From a virus (lineage: Duplodnaviria; Heunggongvirae; Uroviricota; Caudoviricetes), in the IMG/VR virus record IMGVR_UViG_3300042259_000065: a stretch of DNA of 64,000 nt; one strand, written 5' to 3'. The notes below the pieces were generated by a model. The model did not search any database, was not told the DNA's origin, and saw nothing but the letters and a program-made list of their open reading frames with translations. How positions within the stretch are numbered: position 1 is the first letter of the stretch; each line of letters opens with the position of its first letter. This document shows positions 2,753-56,769 of the stretch, in pieces. Position numbers and translations under genes: made by a program.

Positions 2753-3517
2753 CTATACTCGACTAATATTCAATTTATCTAAAATTCTCTGTGTTTGTGA
2801 AGGATTCAGTGATTTACCTTCACGAGAAGTAATATTCATCTTGTTCAGATTAGAACAAATATTTGCAAAAGTCAACTTTGTCTTAGAAGCTTTCATCATA
2901 GTGATAATGTGTTCAATTTGAGGGCGCTGTTGTTCCCAGTAATCTGAAGCTTCTGATGAAGTACGTTTTGATACATGCTTGATTTTCCCTTGTGCAAGTT
3001 TTTGTTGATAAGCATCAGAAGCTGCACCAAGTTTAACACCTTTTGATTTAGCTGCAGCAAGGCCACGTTTAACACGGTCAGCAATCATTAGGCGCTCTTG
3101 TTCCGATAAAGCTGCATATATGTGCAATTGGAAATTATCTGCATTAGGCAGCGCTGCAACTTTAAACTTAATCTCACCCTCCATATGACGAGCAATTTGT
3201 GAAACACGTCTTGAGATACGATCCAACTTCGCCACAAGTAAAACAGCTTTTTCCTCTTTGCAGAGTTGCATTGCTTTCTCAAGCTCAGGTTTGTGTTCTG
3301 CAGTACCCGAAATGAATTCTTTGAAGTCACCAATAACTTGACCACAACCTTCTTTATCAAGGAAGTATTTGATATCATTCATTTGTGAATCAAAACCATG
3401 TTGTGTACGAGACTTATCTTCTTTAGAAAGACGACGATATACAACATATTTAATTTCTGACATAATAAAAACCCTCTGTGTAAAACTAACCTTTTTGATA
3501 TAGGCTAATCTTAGCAA
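2753..3517 (-). CDS. Serine recombinase (resolvase/invertase family)
   Basis: N-terminal RRLSKEDKSRTQHGFDSQ, then LLVAKLDRISRRVSQIARHMEGEIKFKVAALP and ERLMIADRVKRGLAAAKSKGVKLG. These match the catalytic-domain blocks of small serine recombinases. Confidence 0.65.
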   Translation of the reverse strand: MLRLAYIKKVSFTQRVFIMSEIKYVVYRRLSKEDKSRTQHGFDSQMNDIKYFLDKEGCGQVIGDFKEFISGTAEHKPELEKAMQLCKEEKAVLLVAKLDRISRRVSQIARHMEGEIKFKVAALPNADNFQLHIYAALSEQERLMIADRVKRGLAAAKSKGVKLGAASDAYQQKLAQGKIKHVSKRTSSEASDYWEQQRPQIEHIITMMKASKTKLTFANICSNLNKMNITSREGKSLNPSQTQRILDKLNISRV

Positions 3518-3544
3518 CAGAGGATTCTTGTGTCAATGGTTTAT

Positions 3545-4645
3545 TTAGATATTATTTAGTTTAGAGATATAGAACTCTCGTGCTTTGTTTGCAACATACT
3601 TACCAACATCCTTCATAGAGAGGTTACTACTTTCAAGTGTGTCGGCTTCTTCCTTGTTTACATCCTTACTCACCCATCCAATGAAGGTTCCAACAAGTTT
3701 TTGGTCAAGACCTACTTCTGCTAGTCCTTGTTCAAGACGATTCTCCGTAACAGCGTAATCTACGAACTCTTTGATTGAATTAAGTTTCTCAGTATCAACT
3801 GCTGCAACAGATTTAACCTTTGACACAGAATGTTTCTGTCCTTTAGTTTTAAACCAATTACCGCTATCCCAACAATACTCAGGGTCTTTCGGAGTCCACA
3901 CTAGACCCTCTCCAAGTTCTGCTGGATTATCATCTGTATCTTTCAAACCTAGTGTACTTGCTACTGGACATGATTTTTCTACAGCTTCTGTAGCTTCTAC
4001 AAGGGTATTCTGTGAGTAAGCTGCATTGTTAAAATCAATGGTGATATGTTTAACAGGAAAATCTGTGATAGCATAAATACCATTATCTTCATCATCTACG
4101 ATATCGCTACAAACTGTAACTGGCAGCCAACCCTGTTTAACTTGCTGAATAGTCTCACCACCTTTAATACCAAATACAAAGAATGAACGTTTAGGTAGGT
4201 AAGAAATACCAACACCTTTCTGGATACCAGATCCACACCACTCACCTGACACTTTAACAGGGTATAGTTCCACACCTTGATGATACTTAACTTCATCTAG
4301 AGCTTTGTACATCATTTCTTTTACACTATCAAAACGACGATACATTGTTTGTGCAAACTCTGCGTTATCTGAGAGTAGTGTAAACTCTTCATCACGCACA
4401 TAACCAAGAAGTTGTGATTTACTGTGGAATGAAATTGTACTATCTTCATGAAGAACGATACTTGCATTAGTCCCATGAAGCTTAGTTGTGCCGATATACT
4501 CAAGTTTAGGGATAGGTTTAGTTGAATCTTTGATTACATTACCATCTTCATCAACACCTACAAAAGTAGCTTGGTCACGAATAGATTTTACCACATTACG
4601 AAATTGTTGTGTGCTGTGATATTTATAATTAGTTGGATGTTCCAT
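3545..4645 (-). CDS. RNA ligase, Rnl2-like
   Basis: Nucleotidyltransferase motif I KLHGTNAS, as in T4 Rnl2 (KIHGTN). The size, 366 aa, fits. Confidence 0.6.
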   Translation of the reverse strand: MEHPTNYKYHSTQQFRNVVKSIRDQATFVGVDEDGNVIKDSTKPIPKLEYIGTTKLHGTNASIVLHEDSTISFHSKSQLLGYVRDEEFTLLSDNAEFAQTMYRRFDSVKEMMYKALDEVKYHQGVELYPVKVSGEWCGSGIQKGVGISYLPKRSFFVFGIKGGETIQQVKQGWLPVTVCSDIVDDEDNGIYAITDFPVKHITIDFNNAAYSQNTLVEATEAVEKSCPVASTLGLKDTDDNPAELGEGLVWTPKDPEYCWDSGNWFKTKGQKHSVSKVKSVAAVDTEKLNSIKEFVDYAVTENRLEQGLAEVGLDQKLVGTFIGWVSKDVNKEEADTLESSNLSMKDVGKYVANKAREFYISKLNNI

Positions 4646-4654
4646 AATTTTCTC

Positions 4655-5056
4655 CTATTTAGTTTTCTTTAAATAAATCTGCATTAAATCCTCACCTTCT
4701 TCTCTATGCTTCTCTCCGTACCATAAAGTTTTACAGATGATATCTCCATATTTACTCTTAACTAGTGTTACTCTAAAATCCTGATCGATAATGTCTAGAG
4801 TTTTATGAGAACACCCTTTATACCAAAATAATAGCTCACAAAGATTATTATCTAACATGTGGTACAGCATTGCCTTTACAACATGCTGATTAAGTATGGT
4901 TAGCCTATCCATAACTCTGTCAGCGAAATGTTTAGGTATAATTATCCTTGGGTGGGTAATAAATACACTCTTTAATTTTTGTTTAAGGTAATCTGAGATT
5001 TCATACCCAAAGAGTTTCCACTTCCTCTCTATAACAAACCTATTTTCATTAATCAT
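4655..5056 (-). CDS. Hypothetical protein
   Basis: 133-aa ORF. Confidence 0.45.
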   Translation of the reverse strand: MINENRFVIERKWKLFGYEISDYLKQKLKSVFITHPRIIIPKHFADRVMDRLTILNQHVVKAMLYHMLDNNLCELLFWYKGCSHKTLDIIDQDFRVTLVKSKYGDIICKTLWYGEKHREEGEDLMQIYLKKTK

Positions 5057-5117
5057 AAAACCTCCTTCTCAATATGAGTAATATTATCAGAAGTGGTGCA
5101 GTTGTCAATAGTAAATT

Positions 5118-5536: not shown

Positions 5537-5787
5537 TCCTCAATTGCTCGGTCACAAACTTCCATAGCTTTCAAAAGTTCACGCATTTCCTTAATAGACA
5601 ATTGTTTACCAGCGACACTTTCTGGAATTGTGACAACAGCTTCATCACCATTTTCTTGCAGAAGAGTACTAATTTCGAAATCATGAAAACCTTGAGAAGT
5701 CCAGTTTACTTTATCTGAACTTGTAGAGACTTCATCAAGAATTGCAGTTGTTTTAATCTTAGCCAATGTTATTCTCCTCATAAGCAA
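5533..5787 (-). CDS. Hypothetical protein
   Basis: 84-aa ORF. Confidence 0.4.
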   Translation of the reverse strand: MLMRRITLAKIKTTAILDEVSTSSDKVNWTSQGFHDFEISTLLQENGDEAVVTIPESVAGKQLSIKEMRELLKAMEVCDRAIED

Positions 5788-5968
5788 GTTTATTTACATA
5801 ATATACACGTTTCTTAAAGTAATCCGTCTTTTGGATATAAGGTACATCTTCAAGAGTATATGTACAAGTTTTCTTATCAGAAGACCATTCTACAATAGCA
5901 CCTTTTGCAGCAAGTTCAGATGCTTTGGAATAGTAATCTTCTTGAGTAGTAGTTGTGAAGCAGGTCAT
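5759..5968 (-). CDS. Hypothetical protein
   Basis: 69-aa ORF. Confidence 0.35.
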   Translation of the reverse strand: MTCFTTTTQEDYYSKASELAAKGAIVEWSSDKKTCTYTLEDVPYIQKTDYFKKRVYYVNKLAYEENNIG

Positions 5969-6882
5969 AGTACTTCCTCTAGGACTTTGAGTTTACAAGC
6001 GCGCAATTTCATACCATTATAATCTGTTGGAACGGAGACTACATCTGAAGGACAAACCTGTACCTTCACCAAATGTGAATTACCACTACCAAAAGTACTT
6101 GCATATTCAAAAGATGCACAATGGATACCGCTTGAACATGTACGATTTGGGTCGTCATCCACTAAACTGCGAGGCATAGATACTACTGTGCCAATACTGT
6201 TATCCATTGTACCTGTATGGAAATCTTTCCAATCATGACGTACACTACGGTATGCAATAATATCACCATCTTCTGAAATCTCAATATCATTGTGTTTCAA
6301 GAAGGGATACAATTCTTCGATTACTGTTGTCTTAGGGTTCATCATTAATTTCTCTAAGAACTTAACTAAAGGCTTGATGTCCTCACGACCATCAAGCATC
6401 AACATCATTCGATCAACAACACTATTCTTAATTTCAAAAGTACCATAAAACACTTTACCATTTTCATGATCAACAGTGATATTACCTTCACTAAACTTTT
6501 CTACAAACTTAGGTAGATTCAATAGTTCATATACTTCTGCAAGAACATCATCACTAAAATCAGACTCCATCAACTTAGTGCGAAGACTTTTGAACTTAGG
6601 ATAATCTTTAGCAACACTACGACTATCTTCATTGCAGAAAATGGTAATCTGATTCTTAGTTACTGTGTAATCATAACAGCAAACTTTATCAGACTTAAAT
6701 TCATCCAGGATGCGGTTTAAAGTACGTACAGAAATACCATACTGCTTTGCAAATTGAGTTTTGTTAAGGACATTTTGCCACTCCCACCCTTTATATATAA
6801 TCTCTTTCTCTTGGTGTGTTTTACATTTTACAATATTTGTACGATTGGACATAATCTTCTCCTTATTTAATAACTTTCTCAA
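5965..6882 (-). CDS. rIIB: rIIB protein
   Basis: C-terminal VVSVPTDYNGMKLRACKLKVLEEV and PRSLVDDDPNRTCSSGIHCAS closely match T4 rIIB (VVSIPTDYNDAKMRTC; PRTRVNDDDTQTCSRGLHVCS). 305 aa versus 312 aa in T4. Confidence 0.85.
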   Translation of the reverse strand: MRKLLNKEKIMSNRTNIVKCKTHQEKEIIYKGWEWQNVLNKTQFAKQYGISVRTLNRILDEFKSDKVCCYDYTVTKNQITIFCNEDSRSVAKDYPKFKSLRTKLMESDFSDDVLAEVYELLNLPKFVEKFSEGNITVDHENGKVFYGTFEIKNSVVDRMMLMLDGREDIKPLVKFLEKLMMNPKTTVIEELYPFLKHNDIEISEDGDIIAYRSVRHDWKDFHTGTMDNSIGTVVSMPRSLVDDDPNRTCSSGIHCASFEYASTFGSGNSHLVKVQVCPSDVVSVPTDYNGMKLRACKLKVLEEVL

Positions 6883-9016
6883 GTTTTAAGTAATACTTAA
6901 ATTTTTCAATGTTACTTTGCGAACAATCTGAAAACTTATCTGTAAGAGGTAGCTTACTCATTGTATTTTCTACCTCAAGTTTAACTTTCTCAAACATAGC
7001 TTTCTTGATACTAACTTGTTTTTCAAACATCTTTGTTTTATTCAGATGGAAATCTGATAAACTCGAAATCAGTTCAATCTTTTCACAAGGTTTAATTCTA
7101 TTTTGAATCTGTTGTTTAATCTTAACATGACTAGGCTTGTTGTCAACCAATACCATTTCTTTCTTGGTAAGATTAGTAAATGGGTTGTTCTTCCACGAGA
7201 GATATTTAACTAAATCTTGTTTATGTTTCTTAACAACCTTTTGCACAGCAACATCAATCTTTTCAATACCGGAGCGTTCAATCTTACCTTTGTTATTAAG
7301 ATTTTTGAAAACAACCTTTGTACCTTCTACTACTTTAAGCATTTTACAAATATTAGCACCATAGGTAGAGAATGTTGTTTCCTGTCTAGGTACAATACCC
7401 TTAACAACAATAGAGTCTTGACTTGCCCAATAAACACCTTTTTCAGATAGATTAACCTTTCCAGTAGATTGTACCCAACCCTCATTCATTAACTCAATAT
7501 AGGTTGCAACAGTTTCATAATCCTCTTTGATACCATAGGTACCACGAGAAGATTTCTCACCTTTAACATGGACTTTCTTCTCTGGGGAATATTCATCTCC
7601 GCAGACAACATCTTCTGAACCAAACCATTTTGCAATATTCTCAGCTTTTTCTTTACATTCAGCAGCCAGAACATGACGACCTTCAAAATGTTTATTTACA
7701 TTCTCAAGTGTATCCTTAATTTTGTAGAAACCTTTTTCTTTTTCAGAATAGATAACAATTGGATTGTTGATCTTAATCAAACGATCTTGATACATGGACT
7801 CTACACTATGAGCAAACATTAATGAGTTTACAGTAGATGGAATAATACCACGAATTTTACCATACTTTTCTTCATTAAGAAGGAACATTAATTGTTTATA
7901 TTTCCACTCGCCTTTACGTGAAGGATCTACATAAGCCAGTACATTACCACGTGTAATAGGTAATTCTAAGTTCTTCATAAGAGTCCATGCATTAGTGCGA
8001 TGATACTGTTTATAGAACTTATAGAAGCTCAAATCAAAATTAATGTCCTTGGTAAACTTACGAAACTCTTTCTTAATATCACTATTGACACGACGACGTA
8101 CTTTGTTAAAAGTCTGTGGGTCATAACTAATAGCTTCACGAGAAGGTGCATGGTCTAAGTCACCGATATTAAAGTTTGTTACATACATACCATTTTCAAC
8201 AAAACTTCCAACTAAGTTTTTAATTTTAGTCTTACCTACTAAACTTTCAAAATCTGGTAGATGATAAAGAACATCACCCATAAGTGCAAGTGTACGTGAA
8301 CGGTGGTTGCTCAGTTCAATTGAGGGTGATTGTACAAACACACTACCTTCTTCACGAACCTGTTCACACAAATTCAAGATTGCTTCATATTCGTCTTGAT
8401 AATTACCAAAGGTATTAACATTGTGTGGTACACGAAAAGCACCTAGTACACGAGCACAGGCTTCTTGCCATTGAGGTACTTGTGACAATTTAACGGGAAT
8501 CTCTACCACAGTACCATTGACTTCGGTTGTCTTTGTTTCAAGTTTTACATCTGCTTTTGGTAACCCTGTACGGTCTTTATAACATACAACTACAGTTTTA
8601 ATACTATCCTTCACAGACGTAACTGTAAATTGTTCAGATACAGAGAAAGCACTTTTGCTCCCGTAACCTAAAGACCCGTTCGTGGTATTGTCATGTTCTT
8701 TTGTAGACTTACCAAAAACAGTATAGATTTTAAAAATAGTTTCTTTTGTCATACCAATACCAAAATCTTGGAACTTGATGACAGGGTTTAATTTTGTAGG
8801 TACATGCACAAAACCAGCTTTCTCAGGAAAACCCGCATCTGTATGACTATCTGTAATATTGGTAGAATACTCACGAACAACAGCTTCTACTTTGTAATCA
8901 TACAGAGTTTCTGCCAAGGTACGTGCAAGTTTAGCAGAAAAATGAAAACCGAAATCTTGACTTTCTTTACTCTTACCTACATTCACTTCATATTCAGGTG
9001 TTACTGGGATTGCCAT
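6863..9016 (-). CDS. rIIA: rIIA protein (GHKL ATPase N-domain)
   Basis: The N-terminus carries GHKL motifs (DFGIGM, GSLGYGSKSA). The 717-aa ORF sits immediately upstream of rIIB, as in T4. Confidence 0.8.
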   Translation of the reverse strand: MAIPVTPEYEVNVGKSKESQDFGFHFSAKLARTLAETLYDYKVEAVVREYSTNITDSHTDAGFPEKAGFVHVPTKLNPVIKFQDFGIGMTKETIFKIYTVFGKSTKEHDNTTNGSLGYGSKSAFSVSEQFTVTSVKDSIKTVVVCYKDRTGLPKADVKLETKTTEVNGTVVEIPVKLSQVPQWQEACARVLGAFRVPHNVNTFGNYQDEYEAILNLCEQVREEGSVFVQSPSIELSNHRSRTLALMGDVLYHLPDFESLVGKTKIKNLVGSFVENGMYVTNFNIGDLDHAPSREAISYDPQTFNKVRRRVNSDIKKEFRKFTKDINFDLSFYKFYKQYHRTNAWTLMKNLELPITRGNVLAYVDPSRKGEWKYKQLMFLLNEEKYGKIRGIIPSTVNSLMFAHSVESMYQDRLIKINNPIVIYSEKEKGFYKIKDTLENVNKHFEGRHVLAAECKEKAENIAKWFGSEDVVCGDEYSPEKKVHVKGEKSSRGTYGIKEDYETVATYIELMNEGWVQSTGKVNLSEKGVYWASQDSIVVKGIVPRQETTFSTYGANICKMLKVVEGTKVVFKNLNNKGKIERSGIEKIDVAVQKVVKKHKQDLVKYLSWKNNPFTNLTKKEMVLVDNKPSHVKIKQQIQNRIKPCEKIELISSLSDFHLNKTKMFEKQVSIKKAMFEKVKLEVENTMSKLPLTDKFSDCSQSNIEKFKYYLKLEKVIK

Positions 9017-9242
9017 AAAATTCTCCTATTCATATTCAACATATTTCTCTCAACAAGATGACTTCATTATAAAGCCACCTTAGTAAAAGTCAACAAGTTT
9101 TAAGCATAAATTTCTTCTTGTGGAACACAAAGATAATCAAACTCTTCTGCAGAGAAATGTACTTCGAGAAGGTTATCTTCTTGGTAAAGTGTTTCTAGAT
9201 AGTTGTTCATTAATTCTGACATTGATACCTCTTAATTCAATA

Positions 9243-10571
9243 TTATTTAATACGTTGTTTGTCTAAGATGTCTTGGTAAGAATCGGCATCCAATTTATCA
9301 AATCGTAACTTCTTGAAGATTGGGAATGTTACACTCTTCTGCTTAGTTTTAGAATTTTCACTTACCTTTTCATATTCAATTTCAACAATCTTACCAAGAA
9401 TCTCATTCTTATTCAACCAAAAGTATTCACGTTGTTCATCAGAGAATCCACTACCACAATCAGTCTTGATTTCACCATCACCAGACTCTAGTTTAATACC
9501 ACCAAGTTTACCAGAAGCTTTACCTGTACCTTCATACAAATCTACAACAAGTAAATCAGCGGGGTCTTGTTTCTTCATCTTAACACAGTGAGAAGGTTTA
9601 TCTACTGCTTTCCAAGGAGCATCCATGTCTTTGAGAATACAACCTTCAAAACCACGAATAACATAATCTTCAAAAATAGCTTTAGCTTCTTCCATAGTAA
9701 CTAGTTCTTTACGAGGAATGAGTTTAATCTTAGGAACAATACTATTCTCATCACACCATTCATGATATTGTTGCATCATACATTCTAGAGTTTCACGACG
9801 TTTATAGTTTGGAGTTTTATCCACACCTTTAGGTTCATAACATTCTGCTCGTATACAATCCCACACAAGGTAGATCGCCGAATCTTTTTCTTCAAAACTA
9901 GCCGTATCTTGTACAAACTTGTTCACAATACCATTATCTTCTCGTGCAGCTTTAGTTTCATCAAAGATGATTTCCCCCTCGAAAGCATAACCATTAAAAG
10001 CTCCACAATCAAGATGCTCTTTTAGAGGTTCCAGTGTTACTGGTTGACCACTTCGAGTCATAAAATCATCGAAGTATGCCATAAAGCTACCATCAGCTTT
10101 CTGCTCGATTGCTTTACGTTTCTTAGCAAGCTTACTGAGGTTTTCTTCATTACAACCTTTAGCTCCTTGACGTGGAGGTGTTACAATAAGATTCTTCCAA
10201 ACTTTATTGATTGTTTGTTTACCAACACCAACCTTTAGATCTTTATGTAGTACACGGATAAACAAGTCACTCATAAAGTTTGGTAATGTTGAGAGATATT
10301 CTACTACAAAAGCTTGTGCTTCATTACCAGTTTTCTTCCTAAGACGTAGTGTATCTAAAACAGCAAAGAATTCTGTCCATGAAAAACTTTCACCTGTTGG
10401 CGTAAAGTCTGGAATCTTTCTCATAAAATATTGCATTGTTGGAGAGTAAGCATACTCAAAGATTTGTTTCAATGCAGAACTTTCTTTGTGTTGCAGTAAG
10501 ATTGCTTCTTTTTCATTTTTACTCTGTGTAACAGATACCGTCTTTAAAGTATTATAAACACTCTTATCCAT
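9243..10571 (-). CDS. ATP-dependent DNA ligase
   Basis: KxDG adenylation motif (EQKADGSF). 442 aa. Confidence 0.7.
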   Translation of the reverse strand: MDKSVYNTLKTVSVTQSKNEKEAILLQHKESSALKQIFEYAYSPTMQYFMRKIPDFTPTGESFSWTEFFAVLDTLRLRKKTGNEAQAFVVEYLSTLPNFMSDLFIRVLHKDLKVGVGKQTINKVWKNLIVTPPRQGAKGCNEENLSKLAKKRKAIEQKADGSFMAYFDDFMTRSGQPVTLEPLKEHLDCGAFNGYAFEGEIIFDETKAAREDNGIVNKFVQDTASFEEKDSAIYLVWDCIRAECYEPKGVDKTPNYKRRETLECMMQQYHEWCDENSIVPKIKLIPRKELVTMEEAKAIFEDYVIRGFEGCILKDMDAPWKAVDKPSHCVKMKKQDPADLLVVDLYEGTGKASGKLGGIKLESGDGEIKTDCGSGFSDEQREYFWLNKNEILGKIVEIEYEKVSENSKTKQKSVTFPIFKKLRFDKLDADSYQDILDKQRIK

Positions 10572-47812: not shown

Positions 47813-47887
47813 GCAGGTGTGATGTAATGGAGAGCATATTTCTCTTCTAAAGAAATCGTCAGCGTTCGAATCGCTGCACCTGTACCA
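47813..47887 (+). tRNA. tRNA-Arg (anticodon TCT) with encoded CCA
   Basis: Hand-folded cloverleaf. The acceptor pairs gcaggtg with cacctgt (G-U first pair), the D-loop has GG, the anticodon stem pairs tttct with agaaa, the loop is cTTCTaa, and the T-arm is cagcg TTCGAAT cgctg. A discriminator A and CCA follow. Confidence 0.7.
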
Positions 47888-48126: not shown

Positions 48127-48201
48127 GGGTATGTAGCTCAGAGGCAGAGCAATTGGCTGTTAACCAATAGGTCGAGATTTCGAAATTCTCCATATCCGCC
48201 A
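48127..48201 (+). tRNA. tRNA-Asn (anticodon GTT) with encoded CCA
   Basis: The acceptor pairs gggtatg with catatcc, the D-arm is gctc agaggca gagc, the anticodon stem pairs attgg with ccaat, and the loop is cTGTTaa. The T-loop is TTCGAAA, with one T-T mismatch in the T-stem. A discriminator G and CCA follow. Confidence 0.65.
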
Positions 48202-50222: not shown

Positions 50223-50651
50223 TCAACGTAATTTTAAACTATGCTGTAAACGTTCTTCCATTTTATTAACAACATCTTCTGGAACATTGTGATTGTTCTT
50301 ATTACTGTGACGTTTTTCTATAATCAGACTTACAACTTTATATCCATAAGCATTAGCCATAGATGTATATGGTTTTAGTTCTTTTTCAGATGTCGATGTA
50401 TTATGAACCACAATATTAGCTACACCAGCATCCATACAAACCATAACACTGTCTTGACACCACTTATGAGCTAAATGAACATTTTCTGGTTTCCAATTAT
50501 AATTCCCTTGGTCATCATAATGAAAATCATCTGCTGCATATGCAATACAATCCTGTAAGGAAATTTCCAAGGTTTTAGCTAAAGTTGTCTTTCCGCTAGA
50601 TGGTAGTCCTCTTAGAATATATAAAGTTTTCTTAGTCATTTTATTCTCCAT
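50223..50651 (-). CDS. P-loop polynucleotide-kinase-like (5'-OH kinase) protein
   Basis: Walker A LRGLPSSGKTTLAKTL, and the size fits a stand-alone PNK kinase domain. The start was chosen at MENK (ATGGAGAATAA overlaps the Rnl1 stop). The track ORF starts at 50729 and would overlap Rnl1 by 89 nt. Confidence 0.55.
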   Translation of the reverse strand: MENKMTKKTLYILRGLPSSGKTTLAKTLEISLQDCIAYAADDFHYDDQGNYNWKPENVHLAHKWCQDSVMVCMDAGVANIVVHNTSTSEKELKPYTSMANAYGYKVVSLIIEKRHSNKNNHNVPEDVVNKMEERLQHSLKLR

Positions 50652-51534
50652 AATAATACCTCTCAATAAATTCTCGTCGTTGTTGATCATTATAAGAACG
50701 CCATACTTCCTTGTCAACATTTTCTGCAAGATAGTCTACGAACTCATAAAATTCTTCATCAATTCGTTGTTTAAACAAGTCTGGTTTATCAAACAAAATG
50801 TCCACTTTAGCTTTACCAAGACGCATAATTGCTTTCTTAGAGAGGTAGTGTGGTGATTTTAATTTACAAAGAACCTCTTCTGTGAAGTAATCCTTAACCA
50901 TATACCCCTCATGATTAACGTCAGTAGGTAGATCTTTAAATTTACCTACCCACAACTCACCACGCCTACATTCAGCAGCCTTGGATAGCCCATTTAGAAA
51001 ATATTCTGATGACATTTTACCTGTGTCATGATACCTACGTCCTATTAGATAAATACCTTCATTTTCCTCTACAATGTGAGGGTCACGTTTATCGCAAACT
51101 TCAAATATATGGGTAACACCTTCTTCATATAGAGCATCCTTGTTAATTGTTTCTAGCCACTCTTCACCAAGTTTAACATACTCAGAATCAAGACTTCCTG
51201 TTGTAGATACAATATAACCATAAGCTTTATTATAAGTTACAGAAAGCATATAACCGTTTACTTTACGAGGACAGATCACCACTTGCTCAGGGTCAACAGT
51301 TGTTCCATTATCACCAAAATTAAACACCTTACGGAAAGGCAGTACAATAACATTCCAAGCTTCATCTACAACAGTTCCTCGGCATTCAAGCAGTCGCTCG
51401 TCAATATGCCACAGATTATTGTAGAAAACCTTTCGATGATATTTAAGGACTGACAAACCTTTATATTTACCTTCGGTGTAAGTTTTCTTAATAACTAGAC
51501 CCTTTTCGATAAGGTCAGATACATCTAATTTCAT
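50641..51534 (-). CDS. RNA ligase, Rnl1-like
   Basis: LLECRGTVVDE matches T4 Rnl1 ALECRGIMFE; motif I RKVNGYMLSV matches KEDGSLVS; EGYMVKD...CKLKS matches EGYVAVMKDG..FKIKS. Confidence 0.7.
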   Translation of the reverse strand: MKLDVSDLIEKGLVIKKTYTEGKYKGLSVLKYHRKVFYNNLWHIDERLLECRGTVVDEAWNVIVLPFRKVFNFGDNGTTVDPEQVVICPRKVNGYMLSVTYNKAYGYIVSTTGSLDSEYVKLGEEWLETINKDALYEEGVTHIFEVCDKRDPHIVEENEGIYLIGRRYHDTGKMSSEYFLNGLSKAAECRRGELWVGKFKDLPTDVNHEGYMVKDYFTEEVLCKLKSPHYLSKKAIMRLGKAKVDILFDKPDLFKQRIDEEFYEFVDYLAENVDKEVWRSYNDQQRREFIERYYYGE

Positions 51535-55367: not shown

Positions 55368-56054
55368 GTGCTTATGGTGACAGTAAAATTAACCTTAAAA
55401 GAATCAGAATTGACTCAAGAATTACTTCATGAATGTTTCGAATACAATCCAGAAGGGTTTCTTATCTGGAAAGAACGTCCACTAAAACATTTTAAGAATG
55501 AAGGTAACCAAAAACGTTTTAATACACCTTGGGCTGGAAAGATTGCAGGTTATTACAATAAGAGAACTGATTCAAAACGTGACGATTTTGGTTATCATAT
55601 AGTAAGGATAACTTTGGAGAAATCACAAGGACTATTTAAATTACACAGATTGATATTCTTAATGCACCACGGATACCTTCCAGCTGTTGTCGATCACATA
55701 GACGGTAACTCAACTAATAACCGTATAGATAATTTAAGGGAAAGTTCTGTACAACAAAATAGTTGTAATCTGAAACTGAACATAAACAACACCTCTGGTT
55801 ATAAAGGTGTACATTCTATAAGGGAAGGTTTTTGGAGTGCACACATAAGGTCGAAAGGTGTAACCTATTATCTTGGTAGCTATAAAGAGAAGCACCTTGC
55901 AGCATACGCTTATAATTTAGCTGCTGAGGTCTTGCATAAAGAATTTGCATGTCTTAATGATATAGAAGAAGATGTATCGGATTTCGATTACTCTTCGAAA
56001 TTCTTTACTGAAATATACCCAACTCTTACAGGGGAGGTAATTTGTAATGGCTAA
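55368..56054 (+). CDS. HNH endonuclease with AP2 DNA-binding domain
   Basis: HNH core HHGYLPAVVDHIDGNSTNNRIDNLRES, then AP2-like YKGVHSIREGFWSAHIRSKGVTYYLGSYKEKHLAAYAYN. Confidence 0.7.
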   Translation: MLMVTVKLTLKESELTQELLHECFEYNPEGFLIWKERPLKHFKNEGNQKRFNTPWAGKIAGYYNKRTDSKRDDFGYHIVRITLEKSQGLFKLHRLIFLMHHGYLPAVVDHIDGNSTNNRIDNLRESSVQQNSCNLKLNINNTSGYKGVHSIREGFWSAHIRSKGVTYYLGSYKEKHLAAYAYNLAAEVLHKEFACLNDIEEDVSDFDYSSKFFTEIYPTLTGEVICNG

Positions 56055-56769
56055 GAAAGTTACACTAAAAGAAAAAGATTTAACACAGAAAATCGTAAAG
56101 GAATGTTTTGACTATCATGAGGATGGGTATTTAATTTGGAAAGACAGACCTGACTATCATTTTGCTAAACCTTCGAGTAAGAAAATCTACACTACGCAAA
56201 AGGTTGGTAAAAGGGCTGGTAGATGGCATAAGCGTACTGATAGAACAAAAGAAGGTTTTGGTTACTGGGTCACTAGCTTGACAATAGATGGAGAACTAGG
56301 AGCTTTCAAGTTACACAGATTGATATTCATGCGGCATCATGGATATTTTCCTGAAGTTGTAGACCATGTTGATAACGATACTGATAACAATAAAATAGAA
56401 AACCTTAGAGAATCTTCAAGTAAAACTAATATTTACAATATGTATAAACCAAAACACAATACATCTGGGTATAAAGGTGTAACAACTCTGTCAAAGATTA
56501 ATAAGTTTAGGGCAGAAATAACCTGTAAAAATGTTTGGTTTCATATGGGTCATTATGAAGATCCTAGAGATGCAGCCTGTGTTTATGATTATGTAGCACA
56601 ATTATTGTTTGGTGAGTTTGCTAGGACAAATTGTATTGAAGATAGAGTTTTTGAAGATTGTGTTAAAAAGAGCACTAAGTTCTATAGGGTTAAACTTCCC
56701 GAATTACTAAATGGTACTTTTGACTGGAGTGTTAACACAAACAGAAGAGGTATTAAAGAAGATGAGTAA
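56047..56769 (+). CDS. HNH endonuclease with AP2 DNA-binding domain; tandem paralog
   Basis: HHGYFPEVVDHVDNDTDNNKIENLRES, then YKGVTTLSKINKFRAEITCKNVWFHMGHYEDPRDAACVYD. Confidence 0.7.
   Translation: MAKKVTLKEKDLTQKIVKECFDYHEDGYLIWKDRPDYHFAKPSSKKIYTTQKVGKRAGRWHKRTDRTKEGFGYWVTSLTIDGELGAFKLHRLIFMRHHGYFPEVVDHVDNDTDNNKIENLRESSSKTNIYNMYKPKHNTSGYKGVTTLSKINKFRAEITCKNVWFHMGHYEDPRDAACVYDYVAQLLFGEFARTNCIEDRVFEDCVKKSTKFYRVKLPELLNGTFDWSVNTNRRGIKEDE

Follow-up and report, generated by a model that had tools for sequence, protein, structure and literature searches.

Serine recombinases bind their cognate sites as dimers, and two sites synapse in a tetramer. The catalytic serine attacks the DNA, producing double-strand breaks with a 2-nt stagger, in which the enzyme is joined to the 5' ends by covalent phosphoserine bonds. 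Half of the tetramer turns by 180 degrees before the strands are religated. Hundreds of large virulent phages (phi92/rV5-like coliphages, an ICP1 isolate, marine Vibrio and Shewanella phages) carry a small serine recombinase of one particular subfamily, which is routinely tagged 'DNA invertase' or read as a warning of lysogeny in phage-therapy screening. These 'recombinase family proteins' of ~215-250 aa combine PF00239 with an HTH of the PF07508/PF20552 type; examples are gp053 of phi92, the 'Ser recombinase' of Shewanella phages 1/4 and 1/40 and the 'resolvase' of Vibrio phage 1.063.O. 'Invertase' and 'resolvase' are names passed on by annotation, and none of the papers searched assigns a function to this phage subfamily.

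The window, a 64-kb stretch of DNA from a virulent-looking (lytic-looking) marine Vibrio phage, contains a gene of this subfamily. The encoded protein has the same architecture, length and catalytic residues as the other members, with 35-60% full-length identity, and shares with them the setting among the early genes of 125-150 kb virulent myoviruses. The window copy differs in that, judged by its domain identities, it is a chimera. The closest isolate is vB_CoeS_P1 (below, CoeS_P1), with a complete 137-kb genome and 264 annotated features; the preprint describing it is silent on the gene.

The recombinase gene and its domains

The coding sequence is located at 2753..3463 on the minus strand and encodes 236 aa, from the ATG at 3463-3461 to the stop codon TAG at 2755-2753. 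A small serine recombinase had been noted at positions 2753-3517, and this assignment holds: the protein matches PF00239 Resolvase (E=5.4e-20, 72 bits against a cut-off of 23.3; residues 25-161 of the 254-aa ORF starting at TTG) and PHROG 125 'DNA invertase' (E=5e-29), and the AlphaFold2 model has a mean pLDDT of 91.6. The 5' end, on the other hand, has to be moved. Three gene callers predict 236 aa, the starts of the homologues all coincide with ATG 3463, and TTG 3517 lies within the promoter/hairpin upstream of the Shine-Dalgarno box of the gene. Thus, by sequence, ATG 3463-3461 is almost certainly the start codon.

The catalytic domain with helix E (residues 1-145; 3029..3463, minus strand) was delineated from invariant alignment columns, alignments to Gin and Tn3, and Foldseek, which matched the catalytic domains of Sin, TP901-1 and IS607 TnpA. 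In Tn3 resolvase, six residues are crucial: Y6, R8, S10, D36, R68 and R71 (PMC2794168). The nucleophile position is Ser13 in the motif YRRLS (Y9, R11, S13), whereas the motif DRISRR carries D81, R82 and R85. In the family alignment of 42 sequences, Y9 (Tn3 Y6), R11 (R8), S13 (S10), R82 (R68) and R85 (R71) are invariant, and D81 (Tn3 D67) is nearly invariant. Tn3 D36 is conservatively replaced by Glu (E49, FKEFISG), and the position of Tn3 R45 holds Lys. The resolvase/invertase blocks named in the preliminary description are therefore genuine (PF00239; invariant Tyr/Arg/Ser/Arg/Arg in 42 homologues), and neither the catalytic Ser nor the Arg residues are missing from the alignment. The model has a long helix E at residues 110-140. 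It is near-certain from the sequence that the protein is a small serine recombinase, and it is apparently catalytically competent.

The C-terminal domain (residues 146-236; 2756..3028, minus strand) is a predicted helical DNA-binding domain with an HTH similar to that of the recombinase domain (TFANICSNLNKMNITSREGKSLNPSQTQRIL), as indicated by AlphaFold2, Pfam matches in relatives and Foldseek. The model has helices at 150-157, 166-192, 199-208 and 221-230. No match to the Hin-type HTH PF02796 was found in the recombinase at E<=0.1. PF07508 is matched by 21 of the 42 relatives and PF20552 by five; the window protein itself stays above the E threshold of 0.01 for PF07508, only the helical/HTH part of the recombinase domain being present. 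The earlier remark that this half does not look like a canonical HTH was thus correct, but the domain is not exotic, as a very large subfamily has such an HTH. With dN/dS of 0.11-0.16, the domain is evolving, by this measure, under purifying selection. An exhaustive HMMER search with this domain alone yielded three relatives among 1.84 billion representatives, two of them of recombinase-like length (~236-238 aa) and one of 112 aa; a word-indexed search yielded nothing. No protein with this domain beside a different N-terminal domain was found among these representatives, and so there is no sign that it is shared with satellite or host proteins.

With Gin, Hin, Cin and Pin the protein shares the serine-recombinase catalytic domain, and Gin is the best PDB match (E=7.6e-8 with the single sequence, 2e-15 with a profile). 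However, the similarity ends at helix E (the PDB alignments to Gin stop at residue 146-157). Full-length Foldseek matches are formed by large serine integrases only (phiC31, SPbeta, TP901-1, A118 type; e.g. 9dxh_A, 254 columns, TM 0.50), the sole structures that align across the catalytic domain, helix E and the C-terminal domain. Unlike these integrases (>400 aa), the recombinase is less than half the size, ends at residue 236 and, in the model, has no zinc ribbon or coiled coil, so that the machinery for attP/attB discrimination and directionality would be absent. The best NCBIfam matches, XisF and CcrB, are far under their cut-offs. Near-certain, too, is the overall architecture, in which a resolvase-type catalytic domain and helix E precede a C-terminal HTH similar to that in the recombinase domain of large serine integrases. 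Tn3, gamma-delta and Sin resolvases and plasmid multimer-resolution recombinases are similar in size and catalytic domain, and the members standing alone on small plasmids resemble them by context. A res site beside the gene, as in resolvases, would be in keeping with the single-gene arrangement. However, the DNA-binding domain is different from that of the Tn3 and Sin resolvases, and no transposase partner or plasmid replicon was found. IS607-type serine transposases have an N-terminal MerR-like HTH, whereas here the catalytic Ser is residue 13 and the DNA-binding domain is C-terminal.

A candidate promoter within a hairpin

The upstream spacer of the gene (82 bp) is occupied by a promoter/hairpin cassette; the downstream gap is 10 bp. 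The candidate sigma70-type promoter (3508..3536, minus strand), identified by pattern match, consensus scan and conservation, consists of TTGACA (3536-3531), a 17-nt spacer and a TG-extended TAAGAT (3513-3508). It scores 10/12 with TG in the consensus scan, and the exact pattern has three matches in the window against 0.35 expected. In eight recombinase genes of different phages, the upstream TTGACA box is the same throughout, with conservation in the -10 region as well. We infer from the sequence that this region drives transcription as a sigma70 promoter.

A 26-bp hairpin with a U-rich 3' side (3467..3529, minus strand) was identified by RNA folding and by covariation across eight phages. 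Its left arm holds the -10 box and its right arm the Shine-Dalgarno box GAGGG (3476-3472). The folding energy is -27.8 kcal/mol (z=-6.25), and none of 200 shuffled sequences folds as well; the RNA beginning after the -10 box is predicted to be unstructured. The consensus helix has ten pairs, four of them with compensatory changes, and 87.5% of the hairpin cells are paired (32-63% in slid controls). Homologous cassettes of other phages fold with z from -3.4 to -5.4. The arms covary even where the recombinases of the phages have unrelated DNA-binding domains, and one 5' cassette accompanies the recombinase genes at differing loci of differing phages. That the cassette is a generic feature of early genes was rejected, as a scan found this -10/SD design at the recombinase alone in the window. 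The rIIA promoter sits in another, different stem-loop.

Sequence and covariation suggest that the recombinase is transcribed early from its own sigma70-type promoter, buried in the long hairpin. Read-through transcripts from upstream would carry both arms and either be terminated or have the ribosome-binding site sequestered, whereas transcripts from the recombinase's own promoter would lack the left arm and be translatable. Such an arrangement would confine synthesis of the enzyme to the early phase, with transcription by host RNA polymerase, and keep its amount limited. The proposed mechanism would be a clean natural case of translation limited to the transcripts of a single promoter.

There is a precedent in the composite promoter/stem-loop cassettes (PeSLs) of T4-type phages (PMC2839356). 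The window cassette conforms to the definition given there: a sigma70 consensus promoter and a stable stem-loop, ending in the Shine-Dalgarno box and the start codon. Like PeSLs (Arbiol et al. 2010; Comeau et al. 2014), it combines a strong predicted sigma70-like promoter with a stable stem-loop and the Shine-Dalgarno box of the downstream gene, is located in a hyperplastic early region, and has indel junctions in the promoter. Unlike PeSLs, it belongs to another phage lineage, and a single version of the cassette (-10 box in the left arm, Shine-Dalgarno box in the right arm) is tied to one gene family. The adjacent RNA-ligase cassette shows gain or loss through exchange at the -35 box of a promoter; indel exchange at promoters has been described for PeSLs too (PMC2839356).

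Module exchange and distribution

The two domains of the recombinase have different closest relatives. The C-terminal module has 93% identity to that of CoeS_P1 and 83% to that of L099. The catalytic module has 40% identity to CoeS_P1 yet 61% to VPMCC14, which means that it has been swapped. The domain identities (catalytic/C-terminal, %) are 40/93, 31/83, 61/13 and 71/22, and nucleotides 3053-3389 fail to align to CoeS_P1. Judged by these values, the window recombinase is a chimera of a VPMCC14-like catalytic module and a CoeS_P1-like DNA-binding module. The same comparisons indicate that the catalytic module is exchanged repeatedly among phages, while the DNA-binding module remains with the locus. 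The catalytic Tyr and Ser and both Arg-rich motifs are retained in nine of nine phage homologues despite the swaps. A compact (~230 aa) modular subfamily with an exchangeable DNA-binding module would be of interest for recombinase engineering, if the target is found.

The recombinase is located among early genes. The genes around it include rIIA/rIIB, a DNA ligase and RNA ligases, and it is directly flanked by an RNA ligase gene and small phage ORFs. CoeS_P1 has been described as lytic, without lysogeny genes, and none of its 264 annotated features is an integrase, repressor, excisionase or partition gene. This is consistent with the preliminary remark that the window shows no evident integrase or repressor module.

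The rIIA clade comprises 45 phage records. Of the phage records searched, only 11 have a close homologue of the recombinase (E<=1e-40), and its position and strand vary among them. In VPMCC14, P018-4 and PWH3a-P1 the gene occupies a second locus. In the ICP1 isolate 2017_DRC_74 it is located in a block without legacy gp numbers, between gp30 and gp41. More broadly, the homologues include genes of phi92/rV5-like phages (more than a hundred Escherichia phage records) and of one or more ICP1 isolates, as well as genes of small plasmids and of small integrative or defence islands. By sequence comparison, the recombinase is an accessory gene, patchy among related phages, present at differing loci and horizontally shuffled. 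Such a distribution implies that it is dispensable for phages of this type.

Full-length homologues are encoded on plasmids of 5.7-30 kb; of 112 plasmid records with a match, 93 are predicted to be non-mobilizable. Other homologues belong to small elements with a tyrosine integrase of their own, and bacterial homologues with ~40% identity are located in defence islands and small integrative elements. A scan of one bacterial genome per species produced no relative above 42% identity (51% where the catalytic domain alone aligned), and neither Vibrio nor Shewanella appears in the 80 titles of the loci returned.

Candidate sites and possible role

No array of res-like subsites adjoins the gene, either in the upstream spacer or in the 10 bp downstream, and no upstream motif is repeated anywhere in the window or the CoeS_P1 genome. 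Conserved dyads within or downstream of the gene are absent among phages sharing the DNA-binding domain. At the gene, neither direct repeats on its flanks nor empty-site junctions that site-specific recombination would explain were found, and no tRNA fragment lies near it. The upstream inverted repeat CCTCTGT...ACAGAGG with the 12-bp palindrome GCTAAGATTAGC was considered as a crossover site or an operator and rejected for several reasons. The whole of 3467-3529 forms one RNA hairpin with the -10 and Shine-Dalgarno boxes; covariation of the arms extends to phages with recombinases whose DNA-binding domains are unrelated; the palindrome is missing in L101, whose DNA-binding domain is related; and this repeat, too, is unique in the window and in CoeS_P1.

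The best explanation overall, to which we assign a probability of about 0.4, is that the recombinase is an early-only, resolvase-type accessory enzyme. The reaction is most likely of the resolvase type, at a single cognate site per DNA molecule, since the gene's relatives are found singly on small plasmids and within small integrative elements already served by a tyrosine integrase; the role is the least certain part. By analogy with the superfamily, dimers would bind the cognate site via the C-terminal domain and two sites would synapse as a tetramer. Ser13 would then attack the DNA, with 2-nt staggered breaks, 5'-phosphoserine links, a 180-degree rotation of the half-tetramer and religation. 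Early in infection, the enzyme could resolve or cyclise phage replicons. However, no cognate site was found, and the sole conserved non-coding DNA adjoining the gene is fully explained as the promoter/hairpin, which is itself not duplicated in either the window or CoeS_P1. Moreover, phage packaging from concatemers creates no obvious need for a multimer resolvase, the gene is patchy and dispensable, and for the homologues on plasmids and islands, too, a resolvase role is deduced from context. A target, once found, would explain the presence of a site-specific recombinase in strictly lytic phages.

It is doubtful that the recombinase, instead of doing housekeeping, serves genome conflicts as a weapon or a selfish driver; we know of no description of a small serine recombinase in such a role. 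As a weapon, it would act in the first minutes of infection on foreign DNA, recognising a site (att/res) on a host mobile element, satellite, defence island or co-infecting phage and excising, fusing, scrambling or breaking it. The predicted early sigma70 promoter, the hyperplastic early region with DNA methyltransferases and RNA-repair genes, the patchy distribution with modular shuffling, the bacterial homologues in defence islands and small integrative elements, and, in a relative, a homologue of the anti-Gabija protein Gad1 located 2 kb downstream agree with this. So do the statistical association of small serine recombinases with defence systems (PMC13552941) and two precedents from ICP1, where Adi makes a satellite's serine integrase a site-directed nuclease (PMC9638900) and phage nucleases borrow satellite DNA-binding domains (PMC10055350). 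The swapping of catalytic modules would then be the signature of an arms race, and their replacement behind a fixed DNA-binding module an escape from inhibitors. However, a gene chasing new targets is expected to show the opposite pattern, a changing DNA-binding module rather than one conserved within the locus; the C-terminal domain has only its three relatives, with no sign of sharing with satellite or host proteins; and PADLOC models gave no meaningful match to the recombinase and its small neighbours. Thus a weapon is unlikely. Nor do we favour a mobile promoter-hairpin-recombinase cassette of no benefit to the phage, spreading by homologous recombination at conserved flanks or by a homing-like activity of its own; in the latter variant, the enzyme would cleave recombinase-less alleles. 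The tight translational control would then, improbably again, merely limit toxicity, as with free-standing homing endonuclease genes. The same type of 5' cassette across loci and phages, the patchy presence and variable location, the block without legacy gp numbers in 2017_DRC_74, the PeSL-like exchange of the neighbouring RNA-ligase cassette at the -35 box (PMC2839356) and several HNH homing-type genes in the same genome point to such a passenger. On the other hand, the DNA-binding domain is under purifying selection and all catalytic residues have survived the swaps, which implies selection for activity, although a self-mobilising element would need activity too. The missing direct repeats and empty-site junctions and the occurrence in more than a hundred phi92/rV5-like records also argue against it.

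Three further readings have very little probability. A small serine integrase permitting occasional lysogeny or pseudolysogeny would resemble Orf14 of the Ralstonia filamentous phage RSM, which is such an integrase; resolvase-like genes in 84 Ralstonia phage records match the catalytic domain at ~35% identity, and a single site per genome would suit attP. It is nevertheless very unlikely, as no repressor or excisionase is annotated in CoeS_P1, no tRNA fragment is nearby, the bacterial scan tops at 42% (51% for the catalytic domain alone) without a Vibrio or Shewanella title, and the bacterial homologues belong to elements already equipped with a tyrosine integrase. Still less probable is a DNA invertase of the Gin/Cin/Hin type that inverts a segment and so changes tail fibres or host range, a role that the preliminary description had raised by reference to Gin/Cin, alongside the resolution of replication multimers. 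This reading draws on the name 'DNA invertase' given to homologues by PHROG and several GenBank records and on Gin as the top PDB sequence match, which covers the catalytic domain only. However, the genome-wide search for inverted repeats, done on the window and the related CoeS_P1 genome, speaks against it: no pair in the window is above chance (173 weak pairs, 24-41 nt at 70-88% complementarity among the pairs listed), and self-BLAST of the window and of the whole CoeS_P1 genome gave none at E<=0.01. The two genomes are collinear, with no invertible segment found; identical contigs from several samples show no rearrangement, and five near-identical metagenomic contigs have no structural variant near the recombinase (a single 50-bp indel lies elsewhere). 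In addition, the Hin-type HTH is absent, the NCBIfam invertase model (Mpi) scores 28 against a cut-off of 272, and in CoeS_P1 the recombinase (7.4-8.1 kb) is ~88 kb away from the tail-fibre gene (95.8-98.4 kb). The inversion switch is thus largely refuted in silico, and the sequence of the window recombinase justifies neither the invertase nor the lysogeny label. Finally, the replacements of Tn3 R45 by Lys and D36 by Glu and the fact that no substrate was found could suggest an inactive remnant or a DNA-binding regulator past recombining. This is extremely improbable given that the residues crucial in Tn3 are kept or conservatively replaced and (nearly) invariant in 42 homologues, that the model is of high confidence, and that intact catalytic modules have been re-acquired repeatedly.

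A cluster of iterons AAAGGTTAT/AAAGGATAAC, with eight copies in 900 bp (L004 14952-15863), is located just beyond the window. It was rejected as a set of recombinase sites because CoeS_P1, with 93% identity in the DNA-binding domain, does not have such a cluster. The cluster lies ~140 bp upstream of a Cdc6-WHD-like ORF and looks like a replication origin.

Gene, fold and family of the recombinase

The ORF starting with TTG at 2753-3517 on the complementary strand (254 aa) matches PF00239 Resolvase in Pfam (E=5.4e-20) and PHROG 125 "DNA invertase" (E=5e-29). The biologically sensible start, however, is almost certainly the ATG at 3463, giving a product of 236 aa, since the JGI and Logan gene callers chose it on 13 contigs with an identical protein, every homologue begins there, and the TTG is located 5' of the Shine-Dalgarno box, within the promoter and hairpin.

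An alignment of 42 full-length homologues shows no variation at residues Y9, R11, S13, R82, R85, E123 and R130, and almost none at D81 and R124. Y9, R11, S13, R82, R85 and D81 correspond to Y6, R8, S10, R68, R71 and D67 of the Tn3 resolvase; the positions of Tn3 R45 and D36 are occupied by Lys and, conservatively, by Glu. Mutation of Y6, R8, S10, D36, R68 or R71 abolishes Tn3 catalysis (PMC2794168). The preliminary description was correct in identifying a small serine recombinase, given the PF00239 match and the retained catalytic residues; no catalytic Ser or Arg is missing, all being conserved in the alignment. As these residues are present, the enzyme looks active.

In the confident AlphaFold2 model built on the family alignment (mean pLDDT 91.6), an alpha/beta domain like that of resolvases is accompanied by a long helix E (residues 110-140) and a C-terminal domain of four helices. 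A sequence-based search of solved structures found matches to the catalytic domain alone, the best being Gin (E=7.6e-8; profile 2e-15). Foldseek groups this domain with Sin, TP901-1 and IS607 TnpA, and aligns the whole protein only with large serine integrases (e.g. 9dxh_A, 254 columns). The C-terminal domain amounts to the initial portion of the DNA-binding "recombinase domain" of these integrases, whereas their zinc ribbon and coiled coil are missing. PF07508 (Recombinase) is matched by 21 of the 42 relatives and PF20552 (recombinase-like HTH) by five. No Hin/Tn3-type HTH_7 domain was detected in the protein by the Pfam search, and the NCBIfam scores for XisF, Mpi and CcrB are all far under the cut-offs. 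Thus the C-terminal half is indeed not a canonical resolvase HTH, but it is a common variant rather than an unusual one. The protein is a member of a widespread "recombinase" subfamily, whose members are functionally uncharacterised.

Predicted promoter-in-hairpin cassette and exchange of catalytic modules

The recombinase gene is preceded on the same, complementary strand by genes for DNA ligase (9243-10571), rIIA (6863-9016) and rIIB (5965-6882), four small ORFs, ORF133 (4655-5056) and an Rnl2-type RNA ligase (3545-4645), and is followed by a run of small ORFs. The 82-bp spacer between the RNA ligase stop codon and the recombinase ATG contains a predicted extended sigma70 promoter on this strand, with TTGACA at 3536-3531, a 17-nt spacer and a TG-extended TAAGAT at 3513-3508. 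As RNA, region 3529-3467 folds into a 26-bp hairpin (-27.8 kcal/mol, z=-6.25). Its left arm contains the -10 box, its right arm contains the Shine-Dalgarno box GAGGG, and the 3' side is U-rich. RNA folding gives no structure when the RNA starts just past the -10 box.

Within the window, this exact arrangement was found at the recombinase gene only. The same layout occurs upstream of recombinases at seven other loci, in Vibrio phage vB_CoeS_P1 (the closest isolate), two metagenomic relatives, ICP1 isolate 2017_DRC_74, and phages VPMCC14, P018-4 and PWH3a-P1. No variation occurs in the TTGACA hexamer or the final TTTTTATTATG, and the arms covary (CCTCTGT/ACAGAGG, CCCTTGTG/CACAAGGG, TCTCCA/TGGAGA). 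RNAalifold predicted 10 pairs, four of them with compensatory changes; 87.5% of the cells in the alignment are paired, compared to 32-63% with the partner slid, and the covariation score was matched by 6 of 500 shuffles. The homologous cassettes fold at z from -3.4 to -5.4.

The cassette follows the logic of the PeSL composite promoter/stem-loop cassettes of T4-type phages (PMC2839356). Read-through transcripts from upstream would be terminated, or their ribosome-binding site would be occluded by the hairpin; transcripts from the gene's own promoter would lack the left arm and be translated. As only the latter would escape the hairpin, synthesis of the recombinase may be confined to the early phase run by the host RNA polymerase. 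The rIIA promoter (9010-9100; TTGACT-16-TATAAT, 11/12 match) is likewise enclosed in a stable stem-loop, but a different one (-21.3 kcal/mol, z=-3.0), and thus promoter/stem-loop composites extend beyond the recombinase gene. The 1.5-kb cassette of the Rnl2-type ligase and ORF133 (region 3545-5111) is missing from vB_CoeS_P1. Both its ends fall at an ATTGACA -35 box, and at this junction the vB_CoeS_P1 sequence resembles the ORF133 upstream region on the left and the recombinase upstream region on the right; this gain or loss has the appearance of promoter-mediated shuffling of the PeSL type. A second RNA ligase, of Rnl1 type, is encoded at 50641-51534 in the window.

The nucleotide identity to vB_CoeS_P1 is 89% in rIIA/rIIB, 80% in the 5' cassette and the first ~25 codons of the recombinase, undetectable in the central catalytic region (3053-3389), and 84% from codon ~137 onwards, the genes downstream included. 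At the protein level, the catalytic and C-terminal parts of the window recombinase are respectively 40% and 93% identical to those of vB_CoeS_P1, 31% and 83% to those of L099 (a related 118-kb contig), and 61% and 13% to those of VPMCC14. The same values are 71% and 22% for L099 and ICP1, and 30% and 75% for P018-4 and PWH3a-P1. Judging by these comparisons, the locus keeps its DNA-binding module, and quite different catalytic modules have been repeatedly swapped in, likely by homologous exchange bounded by the conserved 5' cassette on one side and the helix-E/linker region on the other. This repeated swapping and the conserved, predicted control by a promoter within a hairpin are the main points of interest. 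As the catalytic Tyr, Ser and Arg residues are retained in every version compared, and dN/dS of the C-terminal domain is 0.11-0.16, the recombinase is under selection rather than decaying. It is very improbable that it is an inactive remnant.

Distribution of homologues

Of the phage records searched, only 11 contain homologues at E<=1e-40, and the position and strand of these relative to rIIA vary. A second locus with divergent versions exists in VPMCC14, P018-4, PWH3a-P1 and others; qdvp001 has no recombinase downstream of rIIB. Only 20 Vibrio records in all match at E<=1e-5, compared to 45 phage records in the clade defined by rIIA, so at least half of the clade lacks the recombinase. More than 100 records of phi92/rV5-like Escherichia phages contain full-length homologues with 35-41% identity, one of them being phi92 gp053. 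The homologue of ICP1 2017_DRC_74 (251 aa, L003 4998-5753), preceded by the same promoter-hairpin cassette, sits between gp30 and gp41 in a block of genes called only by Prodigal, with no legacy gp numbers, which suggests a variable region of ICP1.

The identity of bacterial homologues tops out at about 42%. Some occur in defence islands adjoining type I restriction systems and a KAP NTPase, others in small integrative elements with their own tyrosine integrase. By record title, none of the 80 bacterial loci that the search returned (full-length identity no higher than 42%) belongs to Vibrio or Shewanella. The best full-length plasmid matches are on replicons of 5.7-30 kb, and 93 of the 112 matching plasmid records are predicted to be non-mobilizable. 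Small serine recombinases were described in 2026 as statistical markers of defence systems, with their own role not known (PMC13552941). A homologue of Gad1 (anti-Gabija, PF25705) is encoded at 8563-9603 of L099, ~2 kb downstream of the chimeric recombinase; thus counter-defence genes accumulate in the rIIB-distal early region.

Recombination sites and possible function

The preliminary description suggested a Gin/Cin-like inversion switch or the resolution of replication multimers. A repeat search of the whole window produced 173 inverted pairs, and those listed (24-41 nt, 70-88% complementarity) look like chance. No inverted repeats at E<=0.01 emerged when the window, or the full vB_CoeS_P1 genome (137 kb), was compared to itself by BLAST; the one noteworthy match is a 70-bp overlap of the vB_CoeS_P1 record ends, reflecting an assembly circle. 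All alignments of at least 200 bp between the window and vB_CoeS_P1 are collinear, in the same orientation and order, and five other contigs of this phage population are identical around the recombinase. In vB_CoeS_P1 the recombinase gene occupies 7.4-8.1 kb; the tail-fibre gene is found at 95.8-98.4 kb. As far as the sequence shows, an inversion switch has no inverted crossover sites here, although short degenerate pairs could escape detection, and a DNA invertase is hardly probable. The upstream inverted repeat and the palindrome GCTAAGATTAGC were rejected as a recombination site, both being parts of the RNA hairpin; neither has a second copy in the window or vB_CoeS_P1. A role as an integrase is very unlikely as well: the 264 annotated features of vB_CoeS_P1 include no integrase, repressor, excisionase or partition protein. 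A preprint describes this phage as a lytic myovirus and contains no discussion of the recombinase gene.

The chemistry, taken from the serine recombinase superfamily, can be stated with confidence. The preferred reading, with a probability of about 0.4, is that the enzyme acts early in infection in a resolvase-type reaction, each molecule having a single cognate site, and this might resolve or cyclise replicons; the phage genome is reported to be terminally redundant and permuted. This reading is suggested by the lack of a site pair in the genome (the complete genome checked being that of the relative vB_CoeS_P1), by family members that occur singly on small plasmids or next to a separate integrase, by the apparently early-only expression, and by the linkage of the DNA-binding module to the locus. 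On the other hand, no res-like site was found for the recombinase, and it is clearly dispensable in many relatives. One of the two main rival readings, a function in conflict with foreign DNA, has precedents in Adi and Odn of ICP1 (PMC9638900, PMC10055350). However, the stable part of the recombinase is its DNA-binding module, which is not detectably common to other protein types, and such a function is unlikely. The other, a selfish passenger cassette, is about equally unlikely.

Two adjacent HNH_3 endonuclease genes at 55368-56769, coding for 228 aa (Pfam E=2e-16) and 240 aa (E=5e-13), have a 72-nt repeat in common (74% identity), and several further HNH genes are annotated in vB_CoeS_P1; thus homing-type genes are abundant in the lineage. 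The window contains tRNA-Arg(TCT) at 47813-47887 and tRNA-Asn(GTT) at 48127-48201; the preprint reports no tRNA genes in vB_CoeS_P1. Two otherwise identical metagenomic contigs of the window's phage, L004 and L005, are separated by a 50-bp indel (window ~1180-1228, L004 12236-12284), altering the small-ORF calls where ORFs 896-1216 and 1225-1461 meet.

A gene-free region of 1.8 kb (L004 14186-16002), about 0.7-2.5 kb beyond window position 1, contains eight copies of AAAGGTTAT/AAAGGATAAC in 900 bp, compared to one in the whole 64-kb window, as well as nested inverted repeats of 19-21 nt. The ORF that comes next has a weak Cdc6 winged-helix match, and the gene-free region is probably a replication origin with iterons. 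L005 ends inside this region. To judge by its offset relative to the methyltransferase gene, the vB_CoeS_P1 record seems to begin there as well, and it has no AAAGGTTAT/AAAGGATAAC cluster.

In the Vibrio coralliilyticus chromosome (locus L010), a perfect 17-bp inverted repeat (4955-4971 and 9141-9157) brackets a 4.2-kb segment with a bacterial homologue of the recombinase (40% identity), several small ORFs and three 21-bp direct iterons (5545-5632). A type I restriction system lies on one side, and a KAP NTPase and tyrosine integrase on the other. The segment might be able to invert or to move as a unit, and may offer a route to the sites of the recombinase family.
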